From a virus (lineage: Duplodnaviria > Caudoviricetes), in IMG/VR virus record IMGVR_UViG_3300036453_000011, positions 1 through 41,732 of that record: a stretch of 41,732 nt of DNA; one strand, 5' to 3'. A model generated the notes under the pieces. It was given only the letters and a program-made list of their open reading frames with translations. It ran no database searches and had not been told where the DNA came from. The position numbers were made by a program, and so were the translations under genes. Below, piece by piece: positions 2,217 to 39,692 of this stretch. Numbering within the stretch: position 1 is the first letter of the stretch; every line of letters begins with the position of its first letter.

Positions 2217-2933
2217 TCACTTGAACTTATTGACAGAGTTTTGAACCATAACTTCCAGATATTTATTCTCTAAACCAGTCATAATATCTGTTTGAAAGGT
2301 ACTGGATTTAACGTCCAGAGTATTCATAATCTCTGTTAGAATCTCGTTATCTTCTCGACCACCCCACGTCTTAAAATACGTGCCTTGTTTATATCCTTTG
2401 GCTTGGCGAAACTCGTTGAGGATGTTCTTAGCTAAGTAAAGTTTATACAACTCATCCCAACTAATATTCATAGATACCATAACTACGTAAAAATGCTGAA
2501 GTAGTCCACTGATGGAGACGTGCTCCCCGTGAGACGAGGCGGAGTTAATAAGACGCATTAAACACTCTCGAACATCTGAGATGGTTGCATCCCCTAGATC
2601 AGGTAGGATAGAATCTACTCCAGAAGTCACATCGGTAATTAACTCAAAATAGCTAGTACCCTCTTTGATGTTATACATCATCATTTCAGATAGTAAGAAG
2701 TGCCAGATATCTATTACCTCCATCTTCATCTGAGCCGTATCTGGACCTTTACCGGAGTCCTTCCACCACTTCCATCCGGAGTGATCATAAGCTTCCCAAG
2801 CTTCACCTACGATTGCTACGCACCAATCATGGTTTTCATCACGCCAATTTTTGGTTACTTTGGAATTCAAAGCCTCTTGTAGAGTAAGCATTGTTACTAG
2901 TTGAGCTTCTGTTAAGGCGTTAGGATTTGTCAT
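2217..2933 (-). CDS. dut: Dimeric all-alpha dUTPase (dUTPase_2 family)
   Basis: GEAWE, GWKWWK, MEVIDIWHFLLS, YLAKNILNEFRQAKGYKQGTY.K.WGGREDNE motifs. Confidence 0.9.
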   Translation of the reverse strand: MTNPNALTEAQLVTMLTLQEALNSKVTKNWRDENHDWCVAIVGEAWEAYDHSGWKWWKDSGKGPDTAQMKMEVIDIWHFLLSEMMMYNIKEGTSYFELITDVTSGVDSILPDLGDATISDVRECLMRLINSASSHGEHVSISGLLQHFYVVMVSMNISWDELYKLYLAKNILNEFRQAKGYKQGTYFKTWGGREDNEILTEIMNTLDVKSSTFQTDIMTGLENKYLEVMVQNSVNKFK

Positions 2934-2934
2934 A

Positions 2935-3186
2935 TCAGTATACTTTCTTTAGTTCTTTTAGGATTTCGGATAAAATTTCAGATACGGCGTGGTCAGCAGA
3001 GGACACAAAATTCATAGCCTGCCCTTGGTTGGTATTAGTGCTGAGGGTAAGCTCTAAGTAATCCTGACGTAGCTTATCTCGTAGTTTTGTCAACTTATTC
3101 ACTACACTACCTACGGAGTCTTTCATTTCATATACGCGGTCAATAGGCACTAAGTTTGCCCCGTGCGCGGTAATTGCGCTATTCAT
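2935..3186 (-). CDS. Hypothetical protein
   Basis: ORF tightly packed in the operon. Confidence 0.6.
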   Translation of the reverse strand: MNSAITAHGANLVPIDRVYEMKDSVGSVVNKLTKLRDKLRQDYLELTLSTNTNQGQAMNFVSSADHAVSEILSEILKELKKVY

Positions 3187-8463: not shown

Positions 8464-9228
8464 CTAATTAGAAATAAATCTATCCTTGAAGTCAGTACAC
8501 ATATTCATCAATCCAAACTTTTCATCCCCAGTCAAGATTCTTCCGGCGTAAATGGCATCACTTAAGTTGAACCCTTCTACGGGATTGACCAGGACTAGAT
8601 TGGGGATCTGCTCCGGCAACATGTCAGAAGAGTCGTCAATTATAACAAACGAATCTACTATAACCGTATCCAGGCAAGAGTACGTTGGGAGCAAGTACCC
8701 TTGGCGAATCATAGTTTCTCGAGAGTTTTCATTTTCAGTTAGTTTGGTTAAGAAATCTTGAATTTCTACTCCACGAGTGGTCCCCTCCCTGCCGTATATC
8801 TCTCCCGTACGACCTAACAGATATATCGAATCCAACCCTATCATCTTAAACATATCAAGGATCTGGGTACTTGAGAACCCAAGTCTCCAAGACGAAGATA
8901 ACACGATCAAGGCTCCGGTAGCATTACAAAGCTTATTGATAAGCCCTACCGATTCCTTGCTTATAGCTTCCGGATACCCCACAGCCACTTGCCTAGGGAC
9001 AGACCCCCGCAAGGCAGGGTAAGGTACTTGACCAGTCAATACGAGGGTTTTACTGGACGTTAGAACCTCATCTACGTCGAGGAATATAATTTTCAGGGAA
9101 GTAAAATCGGCATGCCCTGAGTAGTCACCATTCCCAGGAGGGCAGGTAAAAGCATCATACTGAGTAAATGGGATTTTAATAACATCAGGAACCGTAAGAT
9201 CTTTAAAATTGGAAGGTAGGATTTTCAT
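8464..9228 (-). CDS. HAD domain protein (Swiss-Army-Knife RNA-repair-like HAD)
   Basis: IIFLDVDEVL, IVLSSSWR, RGVEI, FVIIDD and V....GF motifs. Confidence 0.8.
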   Translation of the reverse strand: MKILPSNFKDLTVPDVIKIPFTQYDAFTCPPGNGDYSGHADFTSLKIIFLDVDEVLTSSKTLVLTGQVPYPALRGSVPRQVAVGYPEAISKESVGLINKLCNATGALIVLSSSWRLGFSSTQILDMFKMIGLDSIYLLGRTGEIYGREGTTRGVEIQDFLTKLTENENSRETMIRQGYLLPTYSCLDTVIVDSFVIIDDSSDMLPEQIPNLVLVNPVEGFNLSDAIYAGRILTGDEKFGLMNMCTDFKDRFISN

Positions 9229-10777: not shown

Positions 10778-10959
10778 AGTACTAAATCCTTGCTTGAATT
10801 ACAAACTGCGGAAACATTACCCGTGCGACCAGACCGAGTAACACCATCGTTACCAACTACGCATACTCCTAAATAAGGCTTGCGAACCTCACGTAGAATA
10901 ACTACAGAGTCTCTGCCTTTAGTCATATACGTTTTTCCAACTGAGAACTTAGAGCCCAT
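10774..10959 (-). CDS. Hypothetical protein
   Basis: Small ORF coupled to its neighbours (F.VGK.Y.T pattern). Confidence 0.55.
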   Translation of the reverse strand: MGSKFSVGKTYMTKGRDSVVILREVRKPYLGVCVVGNDGVTRSGRTGNVSAVCNSSKDLVL

Positions 10960-11401
10960 TGGCCAAGTCTTTCAGTCTCCCCTGTACTACTAGCGACAAA
11001 AATGCGCCCTCGTACTGGCCAGGATATGTTGTCTTAAAATACTTTTGAATAGTACCCATTGTTTCCCCTCGGCCGTTTCCATGAGAGGTCAATGACCGAA
11101 CAATATCGTAAATCTCATCGGAACCCAATTGAGTAGGTAGTAGTTTTTCAAGTACACTTATTTCCCAGCGATACTTTTTTGAAAATACTTCCTCGGTACT
11201 TACACTAAGTATCTCATAACAGTTTTTGATAAACTTACTGATAGTACTAATCACTTCCGAGTCCGTACTTTCCCGTTTACCATCATTCAATCCAGTGTTT
11301 GCAGCCTCGGAATACAACGTCGTCAGCAGGGTAGCCAAGGGGATGTTACGTGCAACGCGGGCACGCAATTGCATTTCTTTAATATCTAATAATAGTGACA
11401 T
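10949..11401 (-). CDS. GatB/YqeY domain protein
   Basis: LLTTLYSEA..., VISTISKFIK, EISVLEKLLPTQL, MGTIQKYFK..YPGQYEG. The ATG at 11401 has a GGAG RBS. Confidence 0.75.
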   Translation of the reverse strand: MSLLLDIKEMQLRARVARNIPLATLLTTLYSEAANTGLNDGKRESTDSEVISTISKFIKNCYEILSVSTEEVFSKKYRWEISVLEKLLPTQLGSDEIYDIVRSLTSHGNGRGETMGTIQKYFKTTYPGQYEGAFLSLVVQGRLKDLANGL

Positions 11402-11455
11402 GTAAAACTCCAGGTAGGATAAAATGAAAAAGAATGTAAATTGCTTTACACTCTT

Positions 11456-11484
11456 CTTATACCACAAATACTCGAGGATGTTGA
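11456..11484 (-). promoter_or_regulatory. Repeated phage promoter-like motif, copy 4
   Basis: TCAAC-N15-TGGTATAAG. Confidence 0.75.
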
Positions 11485-11745: not shown

Positions 11746-13536
11746 TTACGTTGAGTATGCTACTAAACGTCCTCGAATAGTATCGAAGCTCTCTACATTA
11801 TAAAACTCACCATCTTCATAAACCAGCCCAAGGGCACCTTGCTCTTCCTGTTCTGGAGCTTGTTTATCGTACAGTACAAAAGTACCGTTTTCTTCCTCAA
11901 CCCTAAGAAGACCTTTGGCTGATTTCTTAGTTTTATTGGTATCGGTGGCAGGGTCTTTATAAATTTCTACCCAGGCTCCGTTTACCACCCCATACGTGGC
12001 TTTCATCGCAAAGCCGAAATTATCGCGTGTGAGGTAGTTGTAGGTAAATGACCCAATACCTAATACTACGTTACAAGAAGCAAAACCCTTCTTCATCAAA
12101 CGCTTCATGATACGGTCTGCTCGGTCTAGGGTAATAGAATCCCCGTAGATCAAACCTACTCGTTCATGTAGAACTTTGAATCCTTTCTCCGTTACTGTTC
12201 CGTTAAAGATATCCCATAGACATTCAACGGCTCCTTTTTGTTCAGGGGTTACGACTGTTTCAACACAGGAGACCGTACGGTATCCGTCTTCGTAGTAGTA
12301 TTGCTTATCATGGCGATTCCACTCGATATACCCTTGCAGTAAATACGCCTTACCCTCGTAATAGAATATCCCAGAAACTTCGCTATTTCCGCATTCTCCA
12401 TGAGGGGTTGAATCCGCCTCGTTCCGAACTATTCTCTCCAGGAATATTTTACAAGCTTCTTTTAAGGAACCCCCATCCTTTGTCAGGTCCGGAATATCCA
12501 ACCCACATAAAATATCCACAGGGTCACCACTATCCGGCCGGAATACAACCTTAGCCAACCCTTGAGCATTAGGCTTGCGAGCCAAAATCTCTTCCTTGAG
12601 GTCCGCAGCAGTTTCGCTAATGACTTGGAAAAAGTCGTAGCTATCTGCAACTAGGCTAACGATACCTGTCGGGTATGTCTCCGTTATGGTTTTTTTAATG
12701 AACAAGTTTTCAGCTTGTTTCTTGAGGTTGCCAGATACCCCTTCCCTGGCAAGGTTAATCTCTGTATTAGCAATGTTCAGCGTAGTAACAGAGTGCTCTG
12801 TAGCGGGAACACTGCCTGCGATAAAGATACCTTTGGCCCCATACGCATACTCGAGCCAATCCACGGTACTAACCGAGTCACTACCGAGAAACGATAAGGA
12901 ATGCCCCGCCAAGTTCTTAGCTGCATCCATGTTTCCACTCATACCCCTATTACCGAAGGAGTGGCCTTGCCAGTCTACGAACTCCTTCGGCGATCCTGTC
13001 TCTCCTGCATAGTGAGTAAGCAAACGCCGGTAAGCATGGGCAATAGTGGCAATAGTAGTAACCTTCCAACTATCGGCTGAAAGACTAGTCTCCACGTTGT
13101 TTACCAGCCAAGCAAAGTTAGGATGGGTATTAGCAATAGTGAAGACTGGGACCTGCATAGGTACTTTACTACCTTCTGGCAAAGCTTTGATACTCAACGG
13201 AAGGTACCCTAGATCGTGTAGCGCAGCGATATGCGCCAGATCCATAGGTTCTCCTGTGAACGGCAGTGTGCGTTCTGCAAATTCAGTCAGGACCTCCGTC
13301 TTAGGGCGATCAAAGAACGACTCTTTCCACATCAGGTGAAATTCTTTTAACGTACCTTGAATACCCAACCATACCAGTTTGTGATCATTAAATTGTTCTG
13401 GGATGCCACTAAGCTTATCGCTACGTGGAGTAAAGTTGGCATACAAGTAGCTTGTCCCTGCCGGGAAGACTGGCGGGTGAGATAGCTTGTACGAATCGAG
13501 ATCGTGTAGTGCTTTAAGTTGAAAACGTTGTGTCAT
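11746..13536 (-). CDS. Nicotinamide phosphoribosyltransferase-like protein (NadV/Namat)
   Basis: DSYKLSH, FTPRS, HSFGNRGM, VPATEHSV, VADSYD, FRPDSGDP, GLIYGDSIT, GIGSFTY and KKSAKG motifs. Confidence 0.93.
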   Translation of the reverse strand: MTQRFQLKALHDLDSYKLSHPPVFPAGTSYLYANFTPRSDKLSGIPEQFNDHKLVWLGIQGTLKEFHLMWKESFFDRPKTEVLTEFAERTLPFTGEPMDLAHIAALHDLGYLPLSIKALPEGSKVPMQVPVFTIANTHPNFAWLVNNVETSLSADSWKVTTIATIAHAYRRLLTHYAGETGSPKEFVDWQGHSFGNRGMSGNMDAAKNLAGHSLSFLGSDSVSTVDWLEYAYGAKGIFIAGSVPATEHSVTTLNIANTEINLAREGVSGNLKKQAENLFIKKTITETYPTGIVSLVADSYDFFQVISETAADLKEEILARKPNAQGLAKVVFRPDSGDPVDILCGLDIPDLTKDGGSLKEACKIFLERIVRNEADSTPHGECGNSEVSGIFYYEGKAYLLQGYIEWNRHDKQYYYEDGYRTVSCVETVVTPEQKGAVECLWDIFNGTVTEKGFKVLHERVGLIYGDSITLDRADRIMKRLMKKGFASCNVVLGIGSFTYNYLTRDNFGFAMKATYGVVNGAWVEIYKDPATDTNKTKKSAKGLLRVEEENGTFVLYDKQAPEQEEQGALGLVYEDGEFYNVESFDTIRGRLVAYST

Positions 13537-13734
13537 TTAATTCTTTCTTAGGTAATTTTTAATTCATCAAAAAACTTAATATCTAAAGGCATCCCGTATA
13601 CGGGAAGCACCCTTAGACGGGTAGGGTTAGCCATCCTCTTTTACCAGGATACGCCAATACTTACTGTCTACGTAGCAATACGGGTTAAACTATATCTTTT
13701 TTTTCAAAGCCTCTTGAACTTATATCTATACATG

Positions 13735-13932
13735 CTAGTCAAGACCTAAAGCAATGGCAGATACTAACAAACCTTTATCTTCATTAGAGTTATAGCGGGA
13801 TCTATCTACGACCGCCGCTGCACTCTCTGAACTACGACACTCCACTATGATACTAGAACTAGAGGTACCGCTGCCCGTAGCTTTCAAATAGGTGGATGTA
13901 GTTATTAAGACCCGGTACACGGTAGGGTTCAT
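13735..13932 (-). CDS. Hypothetical protein
   Basis: Small ORF starting just after the Prs-like gene stop. Confidence 0.45.
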   Translation of the reverse strand: MNPTVYRVLITTSTYLKATGSGTSSSSIIVECRSSESAAAVVDRSRYNSNEDKGLLVSAIALGLD

Positions 13933-13934
13933 AC

Positions 13935-14750
13935 TCACTTCATCAAATTGGTGTATGGAGGATACTCCGGATTGAATGGACGAGCACAATAAACTTCGTC
14001 TATTAATCCTTTAAATACGTCTAATCCTTTACTGAAAATACCGTGGGTAACATACAGGATAACTTTACCAGTAGTCAACGTCTTTAGGGCTTCTGCTAGT
14101 TTGATAAAGGTATAGCCGCCGTCACAAATGTCATCCACGATAAGAAAATCCTTATCCCCGACATGCTCAGAGTATACCACTGTACCTGTAATAGCTCCGG
14201 TCTCCACGTTACGAGTTTTATCGGCCCGTACCACTTCCGTAAAGCAGTACGTCTTAGCCAACTCAAAAATCTTCTTATTGGCACCTGCATCAGGGGAGAC
14301 TAGAATCTGCCTATTTCGCCCCAATACCTCGATCATTGGGTTAAATACCTCCGCCTGAGTTCTGACTCTACAGTTATTAATCAAGGCCACTAGCACGTCA
14401 GAGTGGGGATCTTCCACAATAACCTTACTGTAGTTTTGGGAGTTGATGAGGTCACAGAAAACCTTAATAGATAGGGCCTCTCCCGGAGCGCACACTCTAT
14501 CTTGACGTGCGTATGGGCAATACGGCATTGTAAGAATCAACGGGGTCAAAGGCAGGTCCCGACGAACCGCATCAGTCACCATAAGCAGCTCCACAATATC
14601 TGCTGAAGAATGAAGAGTTGCATGAATAGAAATATACTCACCTTTATCTGCGTGTAACTTACCTTTAATTTTTACAGAAACTTCTCCTCCTGAATAAACA
14701 AAACTATTTACTTCCCGGCTACCACCATTTACTAATAATTGTACGCTCAT
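13935..14750 (-). CDS. Ribose-phosphate pyrophosphokinase-like protein (Prs/Adps)
   Basis: SGGEV, MPYCPYARQDR, DPHS, VSPDAGA, IVDDICDGGYTF and YVTHGIFS motifs. Confidence 0.93.
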   Translation of the reverse strand: MSVQLLVNGGSREVNSFVYSGGEVSVKIKGKLHADKGEYISIHATLHSSADIVELLMVTDAVRRDLPLTPLILTMPYCPYARQDRVCAPGEALSIKVFCDLINSQNYSKVIVEDPHSDVLVALINNCRVRTQAEVFNPMIEVLGRNRQILVSPDAGANKKIFELAKTYCFTEVVRADKTRNVETGAITGTVVYSEHVGDKDFLIVDDICDGGYTFIKLAEALKTLTTGKVILYVTHGIFSKGLDVFKGLIDEVYCARPFNPEYPPYTNLMK

Positions 14751-20210: not shown

Positions 20211-20328
20211 TCGGAGTGGAAGGGCTCGAACCTTCATAGGGTGCACCCAACCGTGTCTCACTTATAAAGAGCAATGCATTACTCATTACAGATCCTCAAG
20301 GCGCGTCTACCGATTTCGCCACACCCCG
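20211..20328 (-). ncRNA. tRNA-Leu-shaped RNA with ~34 extra nt in the anticodon arm
   Basis: Acceptor CGGGGTG/CACTCCG+A, Leu-type D arm GCGAAATCGGTAGACGC, variable arm GGGT-GC-ACCC, T arm GAAGG-TTCGAGC-CCTTC. The anticodon region is 51 nt instead of 17. Confidence 0.75.
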
Positions 20329-23469: not shown

Positions 23470-23961
23470 CTAGTCACCAGTCGAAGCGTCTACCAATGAC
23501 AACACCAGACTTGTGCGATTAAAGTTTTCGGAGTTAGTCGAGATTGCCAGGGACATCTTGTTGAACAGGTAGATGGAACCGTTTTCAAACAAAATCTGAC
23601 GATTACCATTGGGAACATCCTTGGCGTTGTCGGAAATATCTTTGGCTTCTTTAAGGCCAAGATTGAAAGCGGAACGAATGGTCTTGATCGCTGCAATGCG
23701 GGAGGTTTCGTAATTGTAAACCAGGCGGAAAGAGATACCCTTAACACCCTCCTCAGTACATTTCAAGTCGTGCTTGCCGACGGTGAGGTGGGTTGTTGTT
23801 GAGTCCCATTGGGCACTATCCAGGGCAACGACTATGTCATTCAGGTACGTGTTGTGAACATAGCTGAAATCAAAGCTGTGAACTGCAGCAATCATAGTTC
23901 TGATAGCCTTGATCTGATCCCCCTGCAGCTTAACAACCTTATGAGGAGTTGGATAGTTCAT
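23470..23961 (-). CDS. Protein with ribosomal protein bL12 (L7/L12) C-terminal-like domain
   Basis: RIAAIKTIRSAFNLGLKEAKDISD. The ATG at 23961 has an AGGA RBS. Confidence 0.7.
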   Translation of the reverse strand: MNYPTPHKVVKLQGDQIKAIRTMIAAVHSFDFSYVHNTYLNDIVVALDSAQWDSTTTHLTVGKHDLKCTEEGVKGISFRLVYNYETSRIAAIKTIRSAFNLGLKEAKDISDNAKDVPNGNRQILFENGSIYLFNKMSLAISTNSENFNRTSLVLSLVDASTGD

Positions 23962-23996
23962 AATAATCCTATATAGAATACTACGTTGAAAAACAA

Positions 23997-24029
23997 AAAC
24001 CATGCTTAGGTTTAAGGTAAGCATGGTTT
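23997..24029 (-). terminator. Terminator after tRNA pair
   Basis: aaaccatgctta-N9-taagcatggttt followed by a U-rich tract on the - strand. Confidence 0.7.
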
Positions 24030-24118: not shown

Positions 24119-24203
24119 TGGTGGGTCGAATTGGGCTCGAACCAATATCCCCTCAAACCAGGCCAACCTGGTCGAAGTGCCTTCCCGATTAGACAACCGA
24201 CCC
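24119..24203 (-). ncRNA. tRNA-like RNA with extended anticodon stem and tetraloop
   Basis: Acceptor GGGTCGG/TCGACCC+ACCA and T arm ATTGG-TTCGAGC-CCAAT. The anticodon arm is CTTCGACCAGG-TTGG-CCTGGTTTGAG. Confidence 0.75.
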
Positions 24204-24222: not shown

Positions 24223-24251
24223 ACTATACCACGCCTCATCTTGTCTGTCAA
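24223..24251 (-). promoter_or_regulatory. Near-consensus sigma70 promoter for the tRNA-like/tRNA-CAT pair
   Basis: TTGACA-17 bp-TATAGT with an extended -10 TG, about 20 nt upstream of the RNA 5' end. Confidence 0.8.
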
Positions 24252-25633: not shown

Positions 25634-25662
25634 CTTATACCAATATATGAGAGTGTTATTGA
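25634..25662 (-). promoter_or_regulatory. Repeated phage promoter-like motif, copy 9
   Basis: TCAAT-N15-TGGTATAAG. Confidence 0.72.
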
Positions 25663-26670: not shown

Positions 26671-26909
26671 TTCAATTCCTTCGGTAATGTTGCGATAGGC
26701 TTATTCCTAGCAAAGTATGCCTGTTGATGAACATCAAACCATGCTCGATCCTCCGCCGAATACATTTTCTTGTAATTAGCGGAGGTTTGCTCATACATCT
26801 TCTCTGCTGCCTTTTTGGCGTCAGGAGCCTTAGAGTGCATTAGCTCCCAAAGATCGGACCCAGGGGTTACAATAGTATCTTTATAACGTTTTTCTTTTAG
26901 TTCAGCCAT
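26667..26909 (-). CDS. Hypothetical protein
   Basis: ORF coupled to its neighbours. Confidence 0.65.
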   Translation of the reverse strand: MAELKEKRYKDTIVTPGSDLWELMHSKAPDAKKAAEKMYEQTSANYKKMYSAEDRAWFDVHQQAYFARNKPIATLPKELK

Positions 26910-27324
26910 GATTTAGGTACTCCGCTACTTCTACCAGACTCAAGAAATATTGCCCCCCATTAGATTTGATCAATTTACCCGTAGCTTCTAGAGAACTAAT
27001 CTGAGCTTTATTAAAGAATGGCCTATCATAGATGCCTGGGAGATCGTGCCAACAAAAGATAGTTTTATCTGGCCGTTTATTACTATCGTCAACGGCCTCT
27101 GCAATACTGTAAACCCCCATCATATCTGGGGTAATTACGTATAGACAGAAATCACAAACTTCTCGCTGTCGCAATTCCTCCGCTTGACATTCCTTGGTCC
27201 AGTTCTTTACTACAGGATTAAAGTAATCAATAGTTAATAGGGGAACCAGATCTTCTCTCCACGTTGAGCCGTTGCAGGTTCCGCCTAAGAATACTTTAGT
27301 ATAGTCGCGCATGTTTAGTGCCAT
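26902..27324 (-). CDS. Nucleoside 2-deoxyribosyltransferase-like protein
   Basis: KVFLGGTCNGSTWRE, YFNPVV..W and YVITP.M.GVYSIAEAVDDSNKRP motifs. Confidence 0.8.
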   Translation of the reverse strand: MALNMRDYTKVFLGGTCNGSTWREDLVPLLTIDYFNPVVKNWTKECQAEELRQREVCDFCLYVITPDMMGVYSIAEAVDDSNKRPDKTIFCWHDLPGIYDRPFFNKAQISSLEATGKLIKSNGGQYFLSLVEVAEYLNHG

Positions 27325-27326
27325 TA

Positions 27327-27623
27327 TTAATCCCAGTAGTCAATCTTCTTCTTACCCAGAATCTGAACCTCATAGTTCAAATCGTGACCCTTATTCAATT
27401 CCGTCCTATTTCCGGCTCGGAACTGAGCTTCTTCTTGTTGCCTAAACCATTTACTAGGCCTGTTTACTGCGTGATGACCGGCATCACTATGGTATTTAGC
27501 TAAGGTTTTAGCTAAGGATTTACCTTTTTTAGGAATTCCTACGGATAGCCTATTCGTAACTTGAACATAGACTAACATAGGGGCGTTAAACTCCCCTGTT
27601 AAACGTCGTTTAGTTTTACTCAT
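27327..27623 (-). CDS. Basic hypothetical protein
   Basis: Start MSKTKRR with a GAGGAG RBS. Confidence 0.65.
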   Translation of the reverse strand: MSKTKRRLTGEFNAPMLVYVQVTNRLSVGIPKKGKSLAKTLAKYHSDAGHHAVNRPSKWFRQQEEAQFRAGNRTELNKGHDLNYEVQILGKKKIDYWD

Positions 27624-27641
27624 ATAATTATTACTCCTCAA

Positions 27642-28136
27642 TCACCCGTTGAACCTACTAAATTCTTCACGAATATCCATTAATACTTTACCCATAAGAT
27701 TTTGACCTCTCCATTTAGAGGGATCGAGGGCTTCTTCTGTCAGGATACCTTGGCCTATTCCCCAAATTCTATCTATCGGACTAGCTTCTACCAGAATCTT
27801 ACATCCCGTACTTATCAAAGTCAAGTACGAAACATAATTTTGATTAAACTTTGCCACATTAACTATCTTCATAGCCTGTTCCCTGACGGACGCCCACTTC
27901 TCATCGTCATAACCTACTATTTCTCTACCTATTTTCTTAGCCGTAATAGGGTTACTACAAAGACTTATGCTGTTGGCGGATACGTGATCCTTAAAGAACC
28001 TAGCTTTCAAGAACATAAAGGCCTGCTCGGAACTGCCAAAAGTTGTTCCTTGTATAGTTACAGCAGTGGGGTAGTGATTTGAAAACACAGAATTATTACC
28101 ATAGAATAGTACTAGGTCATCTGTTTCTTTTTGCAT
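27642..28136 (-). CDS. NADAR (YbiA-like) family protein
   Basis: FSNHYP, SSEQAFMFLKARFF.D, AKKIGR, AKF.QN, LVEASPIDRIWGIG and W.GQNLMGKVLM.IR motifs. The ORF-track start overlaps tRNA-Trp, so the ATG at 28136 (GGAG RBS) is preferred; GTG at 28220 is an alternative. Confidence 0.92.
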   Translation of the reverse strand: MQKETDDLVLFYGNNSVFSNHYPTAVTIQGTTFGSSEQAFMFLKARFFKDHVSANSISLCSNPITAKKIGREIVGYDDEKWASVREQAMKIVNVAKFNQNYVSYLTLISTGCKILVEASPIDRIWGIGQGILTEEALDPSKWRGQNLMGKVLMDIREEFSRFNG

Positions 28137-28240
28137 GTGGTTCTCCGAAATATTAATAACGCGTGGTGCGTTGTGGAGGTTAATAGGAGGTAGTACTAAG
28201 TCGGGCCAGTGTAGTTTCACATAACCTTCAATGTTTATTG

Positions 28241-28316
28241 TGGCAAATCTCTCAGGACTCGAACCTGAATCGCACGGTTTTGGAGACCGGCATCCTTCCA
28301 ATTGGACTAGAGACTT
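28241..28316 (-). tRNA. tRNA-Trp(CCA)
   Basis: Anticodon loop CTCCAAA, G73 discriminator and encoded CCA. Confidence 0.9.
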
Positions 28317-28323
28317 TTTGTTG

Positions 28324-28409
28324 TGGTGGGAATTTTCAGATTCGAACTGAAGAAGCCTAAGGCGCGGGTTTTACAGACCCGAGATAGTTGCCGCACTATC
28401 AAAATTCCC
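28324..28409 (-). tRNA. tRNA-Tyr(GTA)
   Basis: Acceptor GGGAATT/AATTCCC, loop CTGTAAA, long variable arm and encoded CCA. Confidence 0.88.
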
Positions 28410-28415
28410 GTTACT

Positions 28416-28490
28416 TGGCAGAGAATAGAAGGATCGAACTTCTGTATGGGATCGTCAAAGGATCCTGCCTTTCCACTTGGCTAATTCTCA
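28416..28490 (-). tRNA. tRNA-Gln(TTG)
   Basis: Stem-loop GGATC-CTTTGAC-GATCC, G73 and encoded CCA. Confidence 0.9.
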
Positions 28491-28499
28491 ATTGTTTTT

Positions 28500-28796
28500 T
28501 TAAAGCGTTAACTCTTCAATACCATACTCTTCAACCATCTTCTTCCACGCAAACTCCGATTCTTCAGTACTACCGGCGTCTCCTACTAGCTGGTAGGTTA
28601 TCCCCGAGAATGCAGTACCCTTAAAGGATACCGGGTCATAAGTTTTAATGAGTCCAGAAATACGACTTATCCCAGAACCTCCTGAGCCTACGAAGTAATT
28701 TCCTTCAGTAGTAAATTTTATAGACCAGAGATGCATTTTATAATCGGGCTTATGCTCGATAGGCTCTACGACCCAATTGTCATCAGGCTCAATCAT
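28500..28796 (-). CDS. Hypothetical protein (paralog of 28789-29166)
   Basis: W.IK...EG.YFVG....SRISG.IKTYD....GTAFSGITYQLVG. ATG at 28796. Confidence 0.7.
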   Translation of the reverse strand: MIEPDDNWVVEPIEHKPDYKMHLWSIKFTTEGNYFVGSGGSGISRISGLIKTYDPVSFKGTAFSGITYQLVGDAGSTEESEFAWKKMVEEYGIEELTL

Positions 28797-29166
28797 CGTC
28801 TTCAGTCGAATCAAGTTCAGTAAGACCATTTACCCGCTTGTACGCACCCCAAACATATTCCCCATTACTAGAATACCCCCCAGGACCTACTAATTCGTAC
28901 ACCCGGCCACTTGCAGTAACACCGCGTAGTTTGTCCTTGTCAAAGGTTTTAATCGCAGTAGAGACCCTTCCCGAGCGTCCTACGTGGGTTCCTACAAAGA
29001 AGTCACCCTCTACCATGTGTTTGATAACCCATTGGCTCAGGAGAATTTCCGGCTCTTCTGTTACAGGTGCAGTTTTCCAAATACCGCCATTCGTAAAGCT
29101 AGCAATGTACTCCTTACGATCAGCTGCGAAGTCACCAAATGCTAAGTCTTTGTTATCTGCGTCCAT
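28789..29166 (-). CDS. Conserved hypothetical protein
   Basis: W.IK...EGDFFVG...GRVSTAIKTFD....GVTASGRVYELVG with a GGAG RBS. Confidence 0.75.
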   Translation of the reverse strand: MDADNKDLAFGDFAADRKEYIASFTNGGIWKTAPVTEEPEILLSQWVIKHMVEGDFFVGTHVGRSGRVSTAIKTFDKDKLRGVTASGRVYELVGPGGYSSNGEYVWGAYKRVNGLTELDSTEDDD

Positions 29167-29199
29167 TGTGCTACTCCATTTGTACTACGTTAAAAAACT

Positions 29200-29274
29200 T
29201 GGCTCCCCAGGCACGGATCGGACGTGCGACCTAACGATTAACAGTCGTTTGCTCTACCACTGAGCTACTGAGGA
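29200..29274 (-). tRNA. tRNA-Asn(GTT)
   Basis: Acceptor TCCTCAG/CTGGGGA, loop CTGTTAA, G73 and encoded CCA. The T-loop is a TCCGATC variant. Confidence 0.88.
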
Positions 29275-29283
29275 TTTGAGATC

Positions 29284-29317
29284 AAAAAAGCCTGCGACTT
29301 ATTCAGAGGCAGGCTTT
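29284..29317 (-). terminator. Attenuator terminator hairpin upstream of tRNA cluster
   Basis: AAAGCCTGC-N13-GCAGGCTTT followed by TTTG, ending about 10 nt before tRNA-Asn. Confidence 0.85.
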
Positions 29318-29353
29318 AAGTGTTTGTTACAAACTCACTTGTTAAAAGCCGCC
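29308..29353 (-). promoter_or_regulatory. Alternative antiterminator hairpin
   Basis: GGCGGCTTT (last leader codons) pairs with AAAGCCTGCC (terminator 5' arm) and encloses the inner stem AAGTG(A)GTTTG-TAA-CAAAC-ACTT. Confidence 0.7.
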
Positions 29354-29428
29354 AATACCTTCCATCCAGTTATAATTATACTGGGTTTGGTTATTTGAGA
29401 ATTGGTATGGTGAAGTGTTCATAAGCAT
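29342..29428 (-). CDS. 28-aa attenuator leader peptide rich in Asn/Gln/Tyr/Trp
   Basis: MLMNTSPYQFSNNQTQYNYNWMEGIGGF* with RBS AGGTG 7 nt upstream of the ATG. Confidence 0.75.
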   Translation of the reverse strand: MLMNTSPYQFSNNQTQYNYNWMEGIGGF

Positions 29429-29438
29429 ATGTTAACAC

Positions 29439-29771
29439 CTAATCTCTAATAGAGGAAGGAAATTTAAAACTACTTCCAGAATAACTGCGTCCCGCTTTGA
29501 TAACTGCAATGTTTATTAAGGTATTTCCTTCAAAGAAAATTAGCTTATCTCCATGAGTACCTAGCCAGTCAGCGTCTTCGTCAGTAATCTCTTTCCAAAA
29601 GTCCCTAGATAGCACAATCAAATCAGTTAGCGGATTAAAACTCTGCCTAATCTTGCCCACAGGAGTTAGCTCAACCTCTTCGACTTTCTCTTCTACGTCT
29701 TTTACAACTCCTAGAATATCCATAGGCTTACCGAAGTATCCCACTAACTTTTCGATCCACGATAAAGCCAT
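29439..29771 (-). CDS. Hypothetical protein
   Basis: ORF abutting the resolvase stop. Confidence 0.65.
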   Translation of the reverse strand: MALSWIEKLVGYFGKPMDILGVVKDVEEKVEEVELTPVGKIRQSFNPLTDLIVLSRDFWKEITDEDADWLGTHGDKLIFFEGNTLINIAVIKAGRSYSGSSFKFPSSIRD

Positions 29772-36727: not shown

Positions 36728-38332
36728 CTACTTCATTGTGGCTAGGATTGCCTCACACTCGACTTGAGTTATTCCGCGATGTACTGTTTTCAGATTACCC
36801 CACGTAGTACCTAATTCTGTTTCACTGCCGATTGGTAGAGTCAACCAAGAGAACATGGTTTGTGGAAACTCGTTCATGTAATAGTTAACAATTTCAATAG
36901 CCTCGGCCGCTCTCTCGATAGGTACCTCTAGCTCAGCGGAGTCGTACACAGTCGAAGTCGAGAATCCCCCGATCTTCTTAATAGCCTCATTAAGATTTGC
37001 AAATACGATTAAACCCAGAGTAGACGTAGGGGATTGGACCTTTACGTTTACACTATTACGTAGTGCCGCGTTGTACGCCGCCGTTTGTTTAAAACAAGCG
37101 TTGGTTCCAAATTGCTGTTTACGTTGACCGAATGGGGTCACATTACGATGGTTCCACAGAGCTTCGTTATGAGTCACCTCAACGAACGTTTTCATACGAG
37201 GATAAGCTTCAAAGAATAGTTTCATGTACTCTTCCGCTTTCTCCTTTGTTACATTCAACTGGAAGGCTATACCTCCTGCCGAAGATCCGTAAATAATGCT
37301 GAAGGTCAATACTTTTGCTACTTGTCTACGTTCTTTATAATCCCTATACTTCGGATGGCTTGGATCTTCCACGATATGAAAGAATTCTAAATACGGTATA
37401 CCCATCATCAAGGACGCAGATGAGCTATGGAAATCTCGACTCTCCTTAACCGCTTGCAACATGTTCTCATCACCACATAGTGCTGCTAGTATCTTTACCT
37501 CTGCAGAGCTGAAGTCCGTTGCTATAAAACAATATCCAGGTCTAACCGTATAACAATCCCGGATGTTATAGCCATGCTTAGGACGGGGTAGCTGAAGTAA
37601 GTTTGGGGAATCTCCGGATATCCTAAAACCCGAAGTTCCGTGGAGGTTATATTGAGGGTGAATACGCCCATCTTTCTTAACCCAATCTGATACATATGAT
37701 TTGATAAACGTATTAAAGGTTGACGATATATCCTTTCTTTTCGCCATATGTGCAAGGAACTGCTTATCCGGGTCTGGGGTTATATATTTACCCGGTTTCA
37801 TAGGGTCCAGACCTGCAAGATGTAGTATTGCGTGGCCGTCAGTACTGGGCTCTCCTGACGCCGTAAAAAATTCAGGAGTAAACCCTAAAGTTCCGTATAG
37901 ATACTTCGCAACTTCTGTTCCAGAATCCAGATTTAAACCCTCTGGAATTTTACCTTTTAATAAAGCATCAAACCCTGCTACCTCCGCAATCATCTTATTA
38001 GCTATCTCTTTGTTCATAGCCTCGTCATACTGCATACCATTTAACTCTAGATCAATAATGTAATCTAAAGCTATTTGAGTTACCTCAAAGTTAGTATCTA
38101 GTATAGATTTCAGCCTAGTAGAGATTTGTACACCCGTCTCATCATCTATTAGCTGAGTGGGCTCATCCACCAGCTGAGGCCACATTTTCACCAACAAAGT
38201 ACTGGTTGCAATGCAGTCTAACCCTGCATACAGGAGCAGGTCTGAAAATGGAAAATCTTCATAGGTTGTGTAAATAGGTAAAGCTTCAGCTTTAGGCTTT
38301 ACCACTTTTGGTTTTACAGGTTTAACTACCAT
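36728..38332 (-). CDS. polA: Family A DNA polymerase, C-terminal part (ExoIII + polymerase domain)
   Basis: YAGLD (ExoIII), GRIHP, RISGDSPNLLQLP, DFSSAE (motif A), RQVAKVLTFSIIYG (motif B) and TVYDS (motif C). Confidence 0.92.
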   Translation of the reverse strand: MVVKPVKPKVVKPKAEALPIYTTYEDFPFSDLLLYAGLDCIATSTLLVKMWPQLVDEPTQLIDDETGVQISTRLKSILDTNFEVTQIALDYIIDLELNGMQYDEAMNKEIANKMIAEVAGFDALLKGKIPEGLNLDSGTEVAKYLYGTLGFTPEFFTASGEPSTDGHAILHLAGLDPMKPGKYITPDPDKQFLAHMAKRKDISSTFNTFIKSYVSDWVKKDGRIHPQYNLHGTSGFRISGDSPNLLQLPRPKHGYNIRDCYTVRPGYCFIATDFSSAEVKILAALCGDENMLQAVKESRDFHSSSASLMMGIPYLEFFHIVEDPSHPKYRDYKERRQVAKVLTFSIIYGSSAGGIAFQLNVTKEKAEEYMKLFFEAYPRMKTFVEVTHNEALWNHRNVTPFGQRKQQFGTNACFKQTAAYNAALRNSVNVKVQSPTSTLGLIVFANLNEAIKKIGGFSTSTVYDSAELEVPIERAAEAIEIVNYYMNEFPQTMFSWLTLPIGSETELGTTWGNLKTVHRGITQVECEAILATMK

Positions 38333-39692
38333 CTAGTTCCTCACTTTCAACGTCTGTTTCCTCTTCTTCATTTTCCAAATCCACATCTCCAGGCTTGGGT
38401 TTCTTGGCTCTGGTCAAATTTGGAAGCAAGGATTCATACCCGGAGATGTTCAACTCTGGGCACCAGTCCCCTACCCCGGACTTCAAGCTATAGCACCCAG
38501 ACTCTCCTGAGCTTAAAGCGTGCATCAGAAGCATGGTATCTGCAAAGAATCCCCTAAGCCGAACCCCTTTTGTTGCAGCCATGTATATTATATCAAACTT
38601 AAAGTTATGCCCAATCTTAGGAATAGCTTCACTTAATACAATAGGTACTATTAATTTCCAAGCTACATTAGGATTAAAAAAGTTATTCTCTCTATGCCAT
38701 AAAGGAATGACATGCGCAACAATAATTCCAGAAATAGGATCCCTCCAACCGAATTGAATAGTAAGAATCTTGGCGGAGTCAATCCAAGGGTCCAAGGAAG
38801 AAGTCTCTAAGTCCAGGCTAATGATCGTATCTTCCTTTAACTCCAGGATGGTCTGAACAGTATTTTGTACGTCTGTCAAAGACTTACAAATAGTTATGTT
38901 TTTACGTTGGTCGTCCACCCCTTCTTGTAGAGTTTTTACTATTAGTTCACCTCGTACTATTTGTGCAGCTTTTTTAAAGTCCCTAACGATAACACCCATG
39001 TAATCTGCAGACCACATTTTCCCGGAAGCGTTTTGACGAATCATGGATAAGACCCTGGGGTGTAGAGTAATTACGACATGAGCCCCAGTTTCCTGTTTAA
39101 CTATATGACCCCTATTACCTGTATTACTGTGTTTCTTAAAACCTAATAGCTTTGTAACTAACGTACTCAAGCTAATAATAACTTTAGGCTTACACCTGTC
39201 TATTTCCTCGTACAAGTAAGGCTTACACTTCGACAGCACAGTAGATGTAGGTGCCTTGCCTCTAGGGAAGTCAGTCTCAGTAGGCTTACATTTGGATAAA
39301 GAAACTAACCTGTATGTAAGTCCTGTAAAGCCTGCTTTCTGGCAAATGAAGTTGATAATACCTTGCTGAATAAGTTCTTGACCGTTATCTCTACGGTCGT
39401 ACTTACCATTAGGCGCAGCGTGATCCTGAATGATGAGAATATCTACAGAAGTGTTTAGAAGTCTAACTTCTTTATTATTTTGACAACGTATCTTACATAC
39501 CTTTTCGCAGTAGGTAGGCTGGATAATGCTAAAGTCCTCCTTAGATACGATAGCGGCCTCAACAGAAGGCGTTATCTTTGGCAAAACATACAACTGGTCC
39601 AAAGTCATGAGCATCGTTTTAGATACTCTAACTGGCTTATTCTTAATCACCGGTGTAATAACATCCGGGCCCGGTAAGGCTTGGTCGGTCAT
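38322..39692 (-). CDS. Family A DNA polymerase, N-terminal part (UDG-like domain + 3'-5' exonuclease I/II)
   Basis: Cys cluster, KCKP, CKPYLYEEI...KPKVIISL and TLHP (family-4 UDG fold), then LDLETS (ExoI) and GHNFKFD (ExoII). Confidence 0.85.
   Translation of the reverse strand: MTDQALPGPDVITPVIKNKPVRVSKTMLMTLDQLYVLPKITPSVEAAIVSKEDFSIIQPTYCEKVCKIRCQNNKEVRLLNTSVDILIIQDHAAPNGKYDRRDNGQELIQQGIINFICQKAGFTGLTYRLVSLSKCKPTETDFPRGKAPTSTVLSKCKPYLYEEIDRCKPKVIISLSTLVTKLLGFKKHSNTGNRGHIVKQETGAHVVITLHPRVLSMIRQNASGKMWSADYMGVIVRDFKKAAQIVRGELIVKTLQEGVDDQRKNITICKSLTDVQNTVQTILELKEDTIISLDLETSSLDPWIDSAKILTIQFGWRDPISGIIVAHVIPLWHRENNFFNPNVAWKLIVPIVLSEAIPKIGHNFKFDIIYMAATKGVRLRGFFADTMLLMHALSSGESGCYSLKSGVGDWCPELNISGYESLLPNLTRAKKPKPGDVDLENEEEETDVESEELDGS

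Follow-up and report, generated by a model that had tools for sequence, protein, structure and literature searches.

Here we describe a candidate regulatory element in a 41.7-kb fragment of an uncultured phage (IMG/VR record IMGVR_UViG_3300036453_000011; the whole stretch of 41,732 nucleotides (nt) is called the window), in which a short leader open reading frame (ORF) and a predicted intrinsic terminator stand before a block of tRNA genes that begins with tRNA-Asn. We propose that leader and terminator probably act together as a ribosome-coupled transcription attenuator whose output is the very tRNAs that it senses, resulting in negative feedback. Support for this reading is comparative and computational: it comes from the match between leader codons and downstream tRNAs, from orthologous leaders in the relatives G001 and G002, and from leaders in Vibrio phage D181 and Stenotrophomonas phage IME-SM1. 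An earlier sequence-only reading of the window had arrived at the same interpretation, which we uphold in a refined form: no protector hairpin is predicted, the ribosome-binding site may be unused, and one relative, G005, is an exception.

Leader codons match the downstream tRNAs

The leader ORF (29342..29428, minus strand) has 28 codons, or 26 if the second ATG at 29422 is the start, and reads MLMNTSPYQFSNNQTQYNYNWMEGIGGF. Behind it, on the same strand, lie tRNA-Asn(GTT) (29200..29274), tRNA-Gln(TTG) (28416..28490) and tRNA-Trp(CCA) (28241..28316), all three tRNA/Rfam predictions, together with tRNA-Tyr(GTA) (28324..28409), a tRNA prediction. Codons for these four amino acids (NQYW) account for 12/28 of the leader and for nine of the ten codons at positions 12-21, the sensor core NNQTQYNYNW (29366..29395, minus strand). 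The same amino acids make up 13.2% of the proteins of this phage (P for at least 12/28, 1e-4) and never exceed 6/10 in any 10-codon window of the window's annotated proteins. Both the 28-codon frame with its enrichment and the four tRNAs had been pointed out in the sequence-only reading; all are present where they had been placed, and the enrichment is above chance, the core being the best of 47,213 stop-free 10-codon windows taken from all six frames of the whole window.

For scoring, we used the 22 leader codons that precede the antiterminator strand. On these, NQYW ranks first of all 4,845 four-amino-acid sets (12/22, P 5e-6), while the tRNA set (the cargo) of G001 scores 13/22 with a P of 0.37. 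Shuffles reached 12/22 in 6 of 20,000 base-matched and 16 of 20,000 dinucleotide-matched cases. The boundary of the cargo is not arbitrary: on the coding strand, the stretch from the terminator to tRNA-Trp yielded no promoter-like site, in contrast to tRNA-Met with its own near-consensus site (TTGACA-17-TG-TATAGT) at 24228. Directly before tRNA-Arg, no near-consensus promoter site was seen.

Orthologous leaders follow the cargo of their own genomes

The RuvC-like protein encoded in the window ties this phage to a family of phages of about 170-190 kb, including Salmonella phage Arash and Vibrio phage D181 (32% identity), and matches IMG/VR contigs at 31-46% identity. A RuvC profile search returned 21 viral and 24 metagenome loci. 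The gene order RuvC, 110-amino-acid (110-aa) homolog, leader, terminator and tRNA block is kept in G001 and G002, and the leader of G006 is identical to that of G002.

The leaders of G001 and G002 have 40 codons and share with the window the reading frame, an M-N-T start, an E-G-[IN]-G end and a predicted antiterminator. The middle of the leader differs both in length (17 codons in the window vs 31 in G001 and G002) and in content, which goes with each genome's own tRNA set. Accordingly, 31/33 scored codons in G001 fall on its own block (P, N, I, S, Y, F, H, V, A and K, with tRNA-Ala identified at a relaxed threshold and tRNA-Lys by Rfam and a relaxed run) and 7/33 on NQYW; in G002, 27/33 fall on its own block. 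The terminators of the three genomes have the same shape, with 5/11 pairs changed on both sides and 33/33 cells paired. A whole-leader MAFFT alignment misplaces the length difference and was kept out of these pair counts. The sequence-only reading had named, as evidence against itself, homologous loci that keep the terminator and lose the frame and the codon match; most of what we found is the opposite, since G001 and G002 keep the frame and switch codons with their cargo, the departures being the unmatched leader of G005 and a weak match in a further relative, L160.

Leaders of the same design in unrelated sequences

Vibrio phage D181 carries a sequence-unrelated leader of 35 codons in the middle of its tRNA array, before tRNA-Ser(TGA) (locus L177, minus strand). 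All of the first 24 codons after the start (24/24) correspond to the 12 tRNAs that follow the leader, which stand for 11 amino acids; 11/11 of these amino acids occur, and the leader's Arg codon, CGC, is read by the block's own Arg-ACG tRNA. The 14 base pairs (bp) of its antiterminator beat 998/1000 recodings, and 901 bases of the leader region are identical in phages D69 and D148.

A background scan covered 2.2 Mb on both strands, with overlapping loci. A leader with an antiterminator was found at 5/12 terminators lying at most 200 nt from a tRNA, at 1/9 of those at 200-700 nt and at 1/120 elsewhere. The enrichment near tRNAs (5/12 vs 1/120) has a Fisher P of 1.5e-5, or 1.3e-4 with two sister genomes merged. 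We then ran the unchanged detector, with fixed criteria, on the tRNA regions of 10 unrelated cultured phages chosen from tRNA BLAST hits. These regions contained 18 terminators, of which a single one was no more than 200 nt from a tRNA; this one had a leader. It belongs to Stenotrophomonas phage IME-SM1 (L198:2001-2142), where a 27-codon leader is followed by a predicted antiterminator (-34 kcal/mol) and terminator, 5 nt before tRNA-Trp. The first 18/18 codons after the start are within the 15 amino acids of the downstream tRNAs and cover 14/15 of them (simulated P 2e-5, from a small local background); Arg, Ile and His, the amino acids of the upstream tRNAs, are missing from the sensor part. 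The locus recurs in 16 Stenotrophomonas phage records at 99-100% identity, several of which annotate just a terminator. Thus the check put forward with the sequence-only reading, that leader codons should co-vary with tRNA content in related phages, came out in its favor in G001 (31/33), G002 (27/33) and D181 (24/24), and again in the unrelated IME-SM1 (18/18).

The element is not universal, as the other 9/10 unrelated cultured phages had no leader by the fixed criteria. No leader was detected before the tRNAs of phage Arash (partial region) or in the partial tRNA regions of G003, G004, G008, G009, G011, G013, G014, G015, G017 and G018. Several relatives forming a sister clade (L125, L126, L128, L129, L132 and L144) have plain promoter-like sites before their tRNAs and no leader. 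Loose-scan matches in L128, L184 and L185 were left out of the counts, as was an ORF in G012 that passed the looser scan and failed the fixed criteria. The G012 locus (L178, about 2800-3062) combines a sigma-70-like promoter, a 19-codon Pro/Leu/Ser-rich ORF and a strong terminator before tRNA-Ser(GGA), in a different hairpin layout. The terminator pattern alone was rejected as a locus finder because it is generic (119 loci, tRNAs in just 2); a search with the leader-end pattern returned 3 already known loci and 1 chance match without tRNAs (L167).

Predicted alternative hairpins

The predicted terminator (29284..29317, minus strand; -15.7 kcal/mol) consists of a 9-bp stem, a 2x2 loop, 2 bp, a 5-nt loop and U6. 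It ends 9 nt before tRNA-Asn, in agreement with the sequence-only reading, which had placed a terminator about 10 nt before this gene. A consensus terminator scan limited to loops of 3-8 nt did not list the 29317-29284 hairpin. The predicted antiterminator uses the last leader codons, Gly-Gly-Phe (29345..29353, minus strand), as its 5' strand, which pairs with terminator positions 1-10 and is capped by an inner hairpin past the stop codon (29318..29340, minus strand); G001 and G002 have an equivalent hairpin after their own stop codons. When the transcript is cut before the 3' arm of the terminator, GGC-GGC-UUU pairs with the 5' arm on top of the inner hairpin (-15 kcal/mol).

To model the ribosome, we masked a 12-nt footprint past the A site. 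The pairing is kept through Trp21/Met22, is weaker at Glu23 and is lost from Gly24 onward, just past the last sensor codon. In all 7 leaders modelled, it is lost as the A site approaches the antiterminator codons, with one 3-codon re-pairing blip in D181. The model thus has the geometry of an attenuator, in that a stall at the sensor codons frees the antiterminator strand and a ribosome near the stop masks it. In nascent leaders that are not translated, the antiterminator reaches P 0.90-0.99 (window, G001 and G002), and a trp-like protector is therefore not predicted; a trp-type 1:2 pause/protector hairpin was not predicted in any leader state other than the full-length fold of the window, which shows a 1:2-like pairing. 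Equilibrium folding with the ribosome mask was tried as a discriminator and rejected, as the terminator has a P of about 1 in the window and G001 is confounded by a residual hairpin.

We compared antiterminators with 1000 synonymous recodings and 1000 shuffles. Both kinds of control retain the inner hairpin, and the recodings also retain the G-rich residues. Recodings as stable as the native antiterminator numbered 13 (G001), 4 (G002), 2 (D181), 0 (G005) and 17 (L160) of 1000. Of the two mutually exclusive hairpins put forward in the sequence-only reading, the Gly-Gly-Phe pairing does form in the truncated fold; its stability is not above controls in the window, though it is in 5/5 relatives. 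The accompanying proposal to fold the leader with and without a ribosome was likewise borne out in part: the truncated fold shows a position-dependent antiterminator, and the equilibrium fold gives the terminator everywhere.

Start of the leader

A possible Shine-Dalgarno (SD) motif, AGGTG, overlaps a weak extended -10-like site, TG-T-TAACAT (29429..29440, minus strand), from which RNA would begin at the second ATG. The motif itself (29440-29436) lies 7 nt upstream of the first ATG and shares bases with the stop codon of the preceding 110-aa gene, an arrangement that would allow translational coupling. Because AGGTG overlaps the extended -10-like site, translation may start at the second ATG (29422) without a ribosome-binding site, and such a leaderless start is plausible from the sequence. 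The sequence-only reading had taken AGGTG for the ribosome-binding site; the motif is present 7 nt before the ATG, and its overlap with the -10-like site means that it may not be used. The promoter match is weak (-35 box 2/6), and in read-through RNA the SD and both ATGs are predicted to fold into a hairpin. G001, G002 and L160 have a good -10-like site 6-8 nt before the leader ATG (M-N start), with no SD evident. In G005 such a site is seen by eye only and was not listed by the promoter scan. The D181 leader has a clear SD. An extended -10-like motif, TGGTATAAG, recurs at 25639, 25060 and 22198 of the window (minus strand) and in many relatives, and is probably the promoter of this family.

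Proposed mechanism

We hypothesize that, when RNA polymerase has reached about nt 110-125 of the leader, the Gly-Gly-Phe codons would pair with the 5' arm of the terminator unless covered by a ribosome. With ample charged Asn-, Gln-, Tyr- and Trp-tRNA, the ribosome would keep up, mask the strand and let the terminator form. A ribosome that lags because these tRNAs have been cut or modified, are uncharged or fall short of phage demand, or that never loads, would leave the antiterminator in place, and polymerase would go on into the tRNA block, including its two internal protein genes. The tRNAs produced would then restore decoding and shut the switch. The antiterminator would have to work kinetically, since the equilibrium favors the terminator. 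Folding predicts no 1:2 protector of the trp type, so the switch would open whenever translation lags.

Host tRNA-cleaving defences are a conceivable natural trigger, which we put forward tentatively; amino-acid limitation or plain over-demand would act in the same way as tRNA depletion. With similar reserve, we suggest that unrelated families of large phages may repeatedly have built multi-codon attenuators that audit the host tRNA pool and switch on the matching tRNA block under tRNA-destroying immunity, an inducible and self-limiting counter-defence in which the leader codons would list the attacked tRNAs.

Weighing the attenuator against alternatives

Several observations count against an attenuator matched to its cargo. 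In the window, 10/22 scored leader codons fall outside the cargo. The G002 leader suits the cargo of G001 better than its own (30/33 vs 27/33), holding 3 Lys codons with no tRNA-Lys found in the block, and has no His codon. G005 (L136, about 8830-9160) has a full leader and switch rich in N/Q/Y/W/S/F with only tRNA-Tyr behind it (2/29, P 0.32), and is possibly a relic after tRNA loss. The match in L160 is weak (8/18, P 0.025), in a contig that ends inside the tRNA block. The cargo limits of G001, G002 and D181 were chosen after their leaders had been seen, and the terminator covariation comes from two lineages only. Promoter-like TGGTATAAG sites lie inside the tRNA block of G001, so its later tRNAs may not depend on the switch. 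The antiterminated RNAs of G001 and G002 still contain a 5-bp hairpin (-7.1) ahead of the U run. In equilibrium folds, the terminator is present wherever the ribosome is placed (P about 1 in the window). Finally, the window antiterminator is the weakest of six tested: its stability is matched by 301/1000 synonymous recodings and 159/1000 shuffles (not significant), and its arm pairing by 302/1000 and 88/1000, respectively.

The best-placed alternative, which we nevertheless consider unlikely, is a general sensor of translation speed, that is, a real switch that opens in response to uncoupling of any kind (shut-off of host translation, failed initiation or antibiotics) and whose sensitivity is merely tuned by the codon match. 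It would account for the antiterminator forming at P of about 0.9-0.99 in untranslated leaders of the window, G001 and G002 with no protector, for a stall at any codon up to 22 being sufficient, and for the switch that G005 retains without matching tRNAs. What it leaves unexplained is that codon content follows the cargo in five leaders, down to the isoacceptor in D181; nor would a sensor of this general kind be expected to leave out the amino acids of neighboring, separately driven tRNA blocks.

It is more improbable still that the ancestral attenuator has weakened or decayed in the window, with the terminator serving as a plain, leaky close to the RuvC-like operon upstream and constant read-through supplying the tRNAs. 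The low stability of the antiterminator (weakest, and not above controls), the poor promoter match (-35 2/6) and the sequestration of the SD and both ATGs in read-through transcripts would all fit, as would the leaderless loci (L125, L126, L128, L129, L132 and L144) that drive tRNAs from plain promoter-like sites. Such decay is opposed by a leader rewritten to its present cargo (best of 4,845 sets) and by a terminator rewritten with its exact partner kept in the last leader codons, which together call for recent selection on function.

We consider it very improbable that the element serves to make its peptide, a small, host-interacting and N/Q/Y-rich one, with the terminator simply ending the transcript. 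M-N-T and E-G-[IN]-G are common to the window, G001 and G002, but the middle, of 17 vs 31 codons, changes its length and content along with the tRNA cargo, the D181 and IME-SM1 leaders have no sequence in common with it, and the pairing requirement accounts for the G-rich end. Chance is the least credible account; here a spacer poor in G and rich in A and C would read as N/Q/Y by accident beside an ordinary terminator. In its favor, the sensor region has 41% A and 11% G, and short pairings with terminator arms are easily found; against it, composition-matched shuffles reach the match in 6 and 16 of 20,000, the architecture occurs at 1/120 background terminators, orthologs retain the frame, and the fixed criteria found a match in IME-SM1. 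We favor the cargo-matched attenuator as the likely explanation.

The tRNA block and its genome

Upstream of the leader lies the 110-aa gene, of unnamed function (29439..29771, minus strand), whose stop overlaps AGGTG. A homolog also precedes the leader in G001 and in G002/G006; tblastn gives 39% over 56-57 aa in L122 and L123 and no match in the other 12/14 loci given. Inside the tRNA block are a 125-aa gene of an unnamed family (28789..29166, minus strand; 45 matches including itself, none with Pfam), probably co-transcribed, and its 99-109-aa paralog (28500..28829, minus strand; 34% over 89 aa, E 4e-18). This pair (28500-29166, minus strand) would be co-induced with the tRNAs. In tRNA-Asn (29200-29274), TCCGATC replaces the usual TTCGA T-loop. 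Degenerate tRNA-like elements stand directly 5' of tRNA-Met (24119-24203, minus strand), after the promoter at 24228, and of tRNA-Arg (20211-20328, minus strand). An Rfam scan of the window gave six tRNA matches only, with no match to a T-box or other riboswitch model.

Besides the RuvC-like resolvase, the window encodes a DNA polymerase, ribonucleotide reductase, ligase, thymidylate synthase and NAD salvage enzymes. The family A-type DNA polymerase is split over two overlapping ORFs (36728-39692, minus strand). The NAD salvage/repair set (11746-14750 and 26902-28139, minus strand) comprises nicotinamide phosphoribosyltransferase, PRPP synthetase, a NADAR protein and a nucleoside deoxyribosyltransferase-like protein. 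Further translation-related cargo on the minus strand comprises a YqeY-like protein (10949-11467), a HAD domain of RNA-repair proteins (8464-9228) and a protein with a ribosomal L7/L12 C-terminal match (23470-24024). Among relatives, a group I intron (Rfam RF00028) lies at L160:4132-4352, and tRNAs with CUA (L168:13310, L169:13352 and L125-L130) or UCA (L132:19368) anticodons are possible stop suppressors.

No close DNA relative of the window was found among 50,697 phage records, where matches were confined to tRNAs, and single-protein scans of viral contigs returned nothing, nor did the genome collection yield a match. Contigs of runs X2 and X3 span the leader with no listed difference and so add no variation. 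The window is a single contig, and the sequencing run that contains it best is an ice metagenome, from which it may come. The listed sequencing runs containing the window include no RNA run.

Comparison with known systems

Why phages carry tRNAs is a long-standing question, framed as codon compensation vs the replacement of tRNAs destroyed by the host (PMC10264068). Depletion of host tRNAs during infection, offset by phage tRNAs, is documented (PMC10264068); tRNA-Asn(GUU) is a secondary target of PARIS AriB, and colicin E5 targets queuosine tRNAs (PMC10264068, PMC12409363). These counter-defence studies share with our proposal the compensation of host tRNA depletion by phage tRNAs. In PMC10264068, 'attenuat', 'leader' and 'promoter' do not occur, and the part of PMC12409363 considered here does not treat the regulation of phage tRNA genes. 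Pseudomonas phages have premature terminators in 5' untranslated regions (42 sites; PMC10914365), which resemble our element as conditional-looking termination in phage leaders; the examples in the section considered precede protein genes, with no leader peptide or codon match described. In the portions considered of PMC10221431, PMC2839356 and PMC11598898, 'attenuator' refers to other matters. The sequence-only reading knew of no phage attenuator matched to a multi-tRNA cargo; we found none in the open literature, nor any account of tRNA genes under the control of a leader peptide, in a search that did not extend to subscription journals or bioRxiv supplements.

If our reading is true, a switch that answers slow decoding implies that phage tRNAs are wanted on demand, and the leader becomes a ready reporter of the tRNAs that run short in infection, making the question of tRNA carriage testable. 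Cultured examples (Vibrio phages D181, D69 and D148, and the 16 Stenotrophomonas phage records) put bench work within reach. tRNA genes, with up to 15 inputs, would also join amino-acid operons as targets of attenuation.

Among bacterial systems, the pheM attenuator of the pheST aminoacyl-tRNA synthetase operon senses the supply of charged tRNA and feeds back on the decoding machinery. The phage element would likewise control a part of that machinery by sensing charged tRNA; pheM differs in sensing one amino acid, in having a protein as output and in being chromosomal. T-box riboswitches are also tRNA-responsive antitermination systems (PMC2879506). They bind uncharged tRNA directly and without a ribosome, whereas the phage element would be ribosome-read and has no Rfam T-box match; a T-box presumably could not sense a tRNA that has been destroyed.

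Leader-peptide attenuators of amino-acid operons include trpL, hisL, leuL and the multivalent thrL and ilvL. pheL/pheA is a further member of this class (PMC3082878). With pheL- and trpL-type attenuators the phage element shares a short leader ORF enriched in regulatory codons and a predicted terminator before the regulated genes; in our reading it would also share a choice between antiterminator and terminator that is made by ribosome position. It differs in being viral and in that it would sense four to fifteen amino acids at once. Those attenuators control biosynthetic enzymes, whereas downstream of the phage leader lie tRNA genes and two unnamed proteins, and no genes making, importing or charging the sensed amino acids. 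Compared to the trp type, it has no predicted 1:2 pause/protector, so that its untranslated default would be read-through, its predicted antiterminator strand is the leader's own last codons, and its start is possibly leaderless. Since it departs from two defining features, with no protector hairpin predicted and no biosynthetic cargo, we regard the candidate phage element as a variant of pheL/trpL-type attenuators rather than a member of that class.

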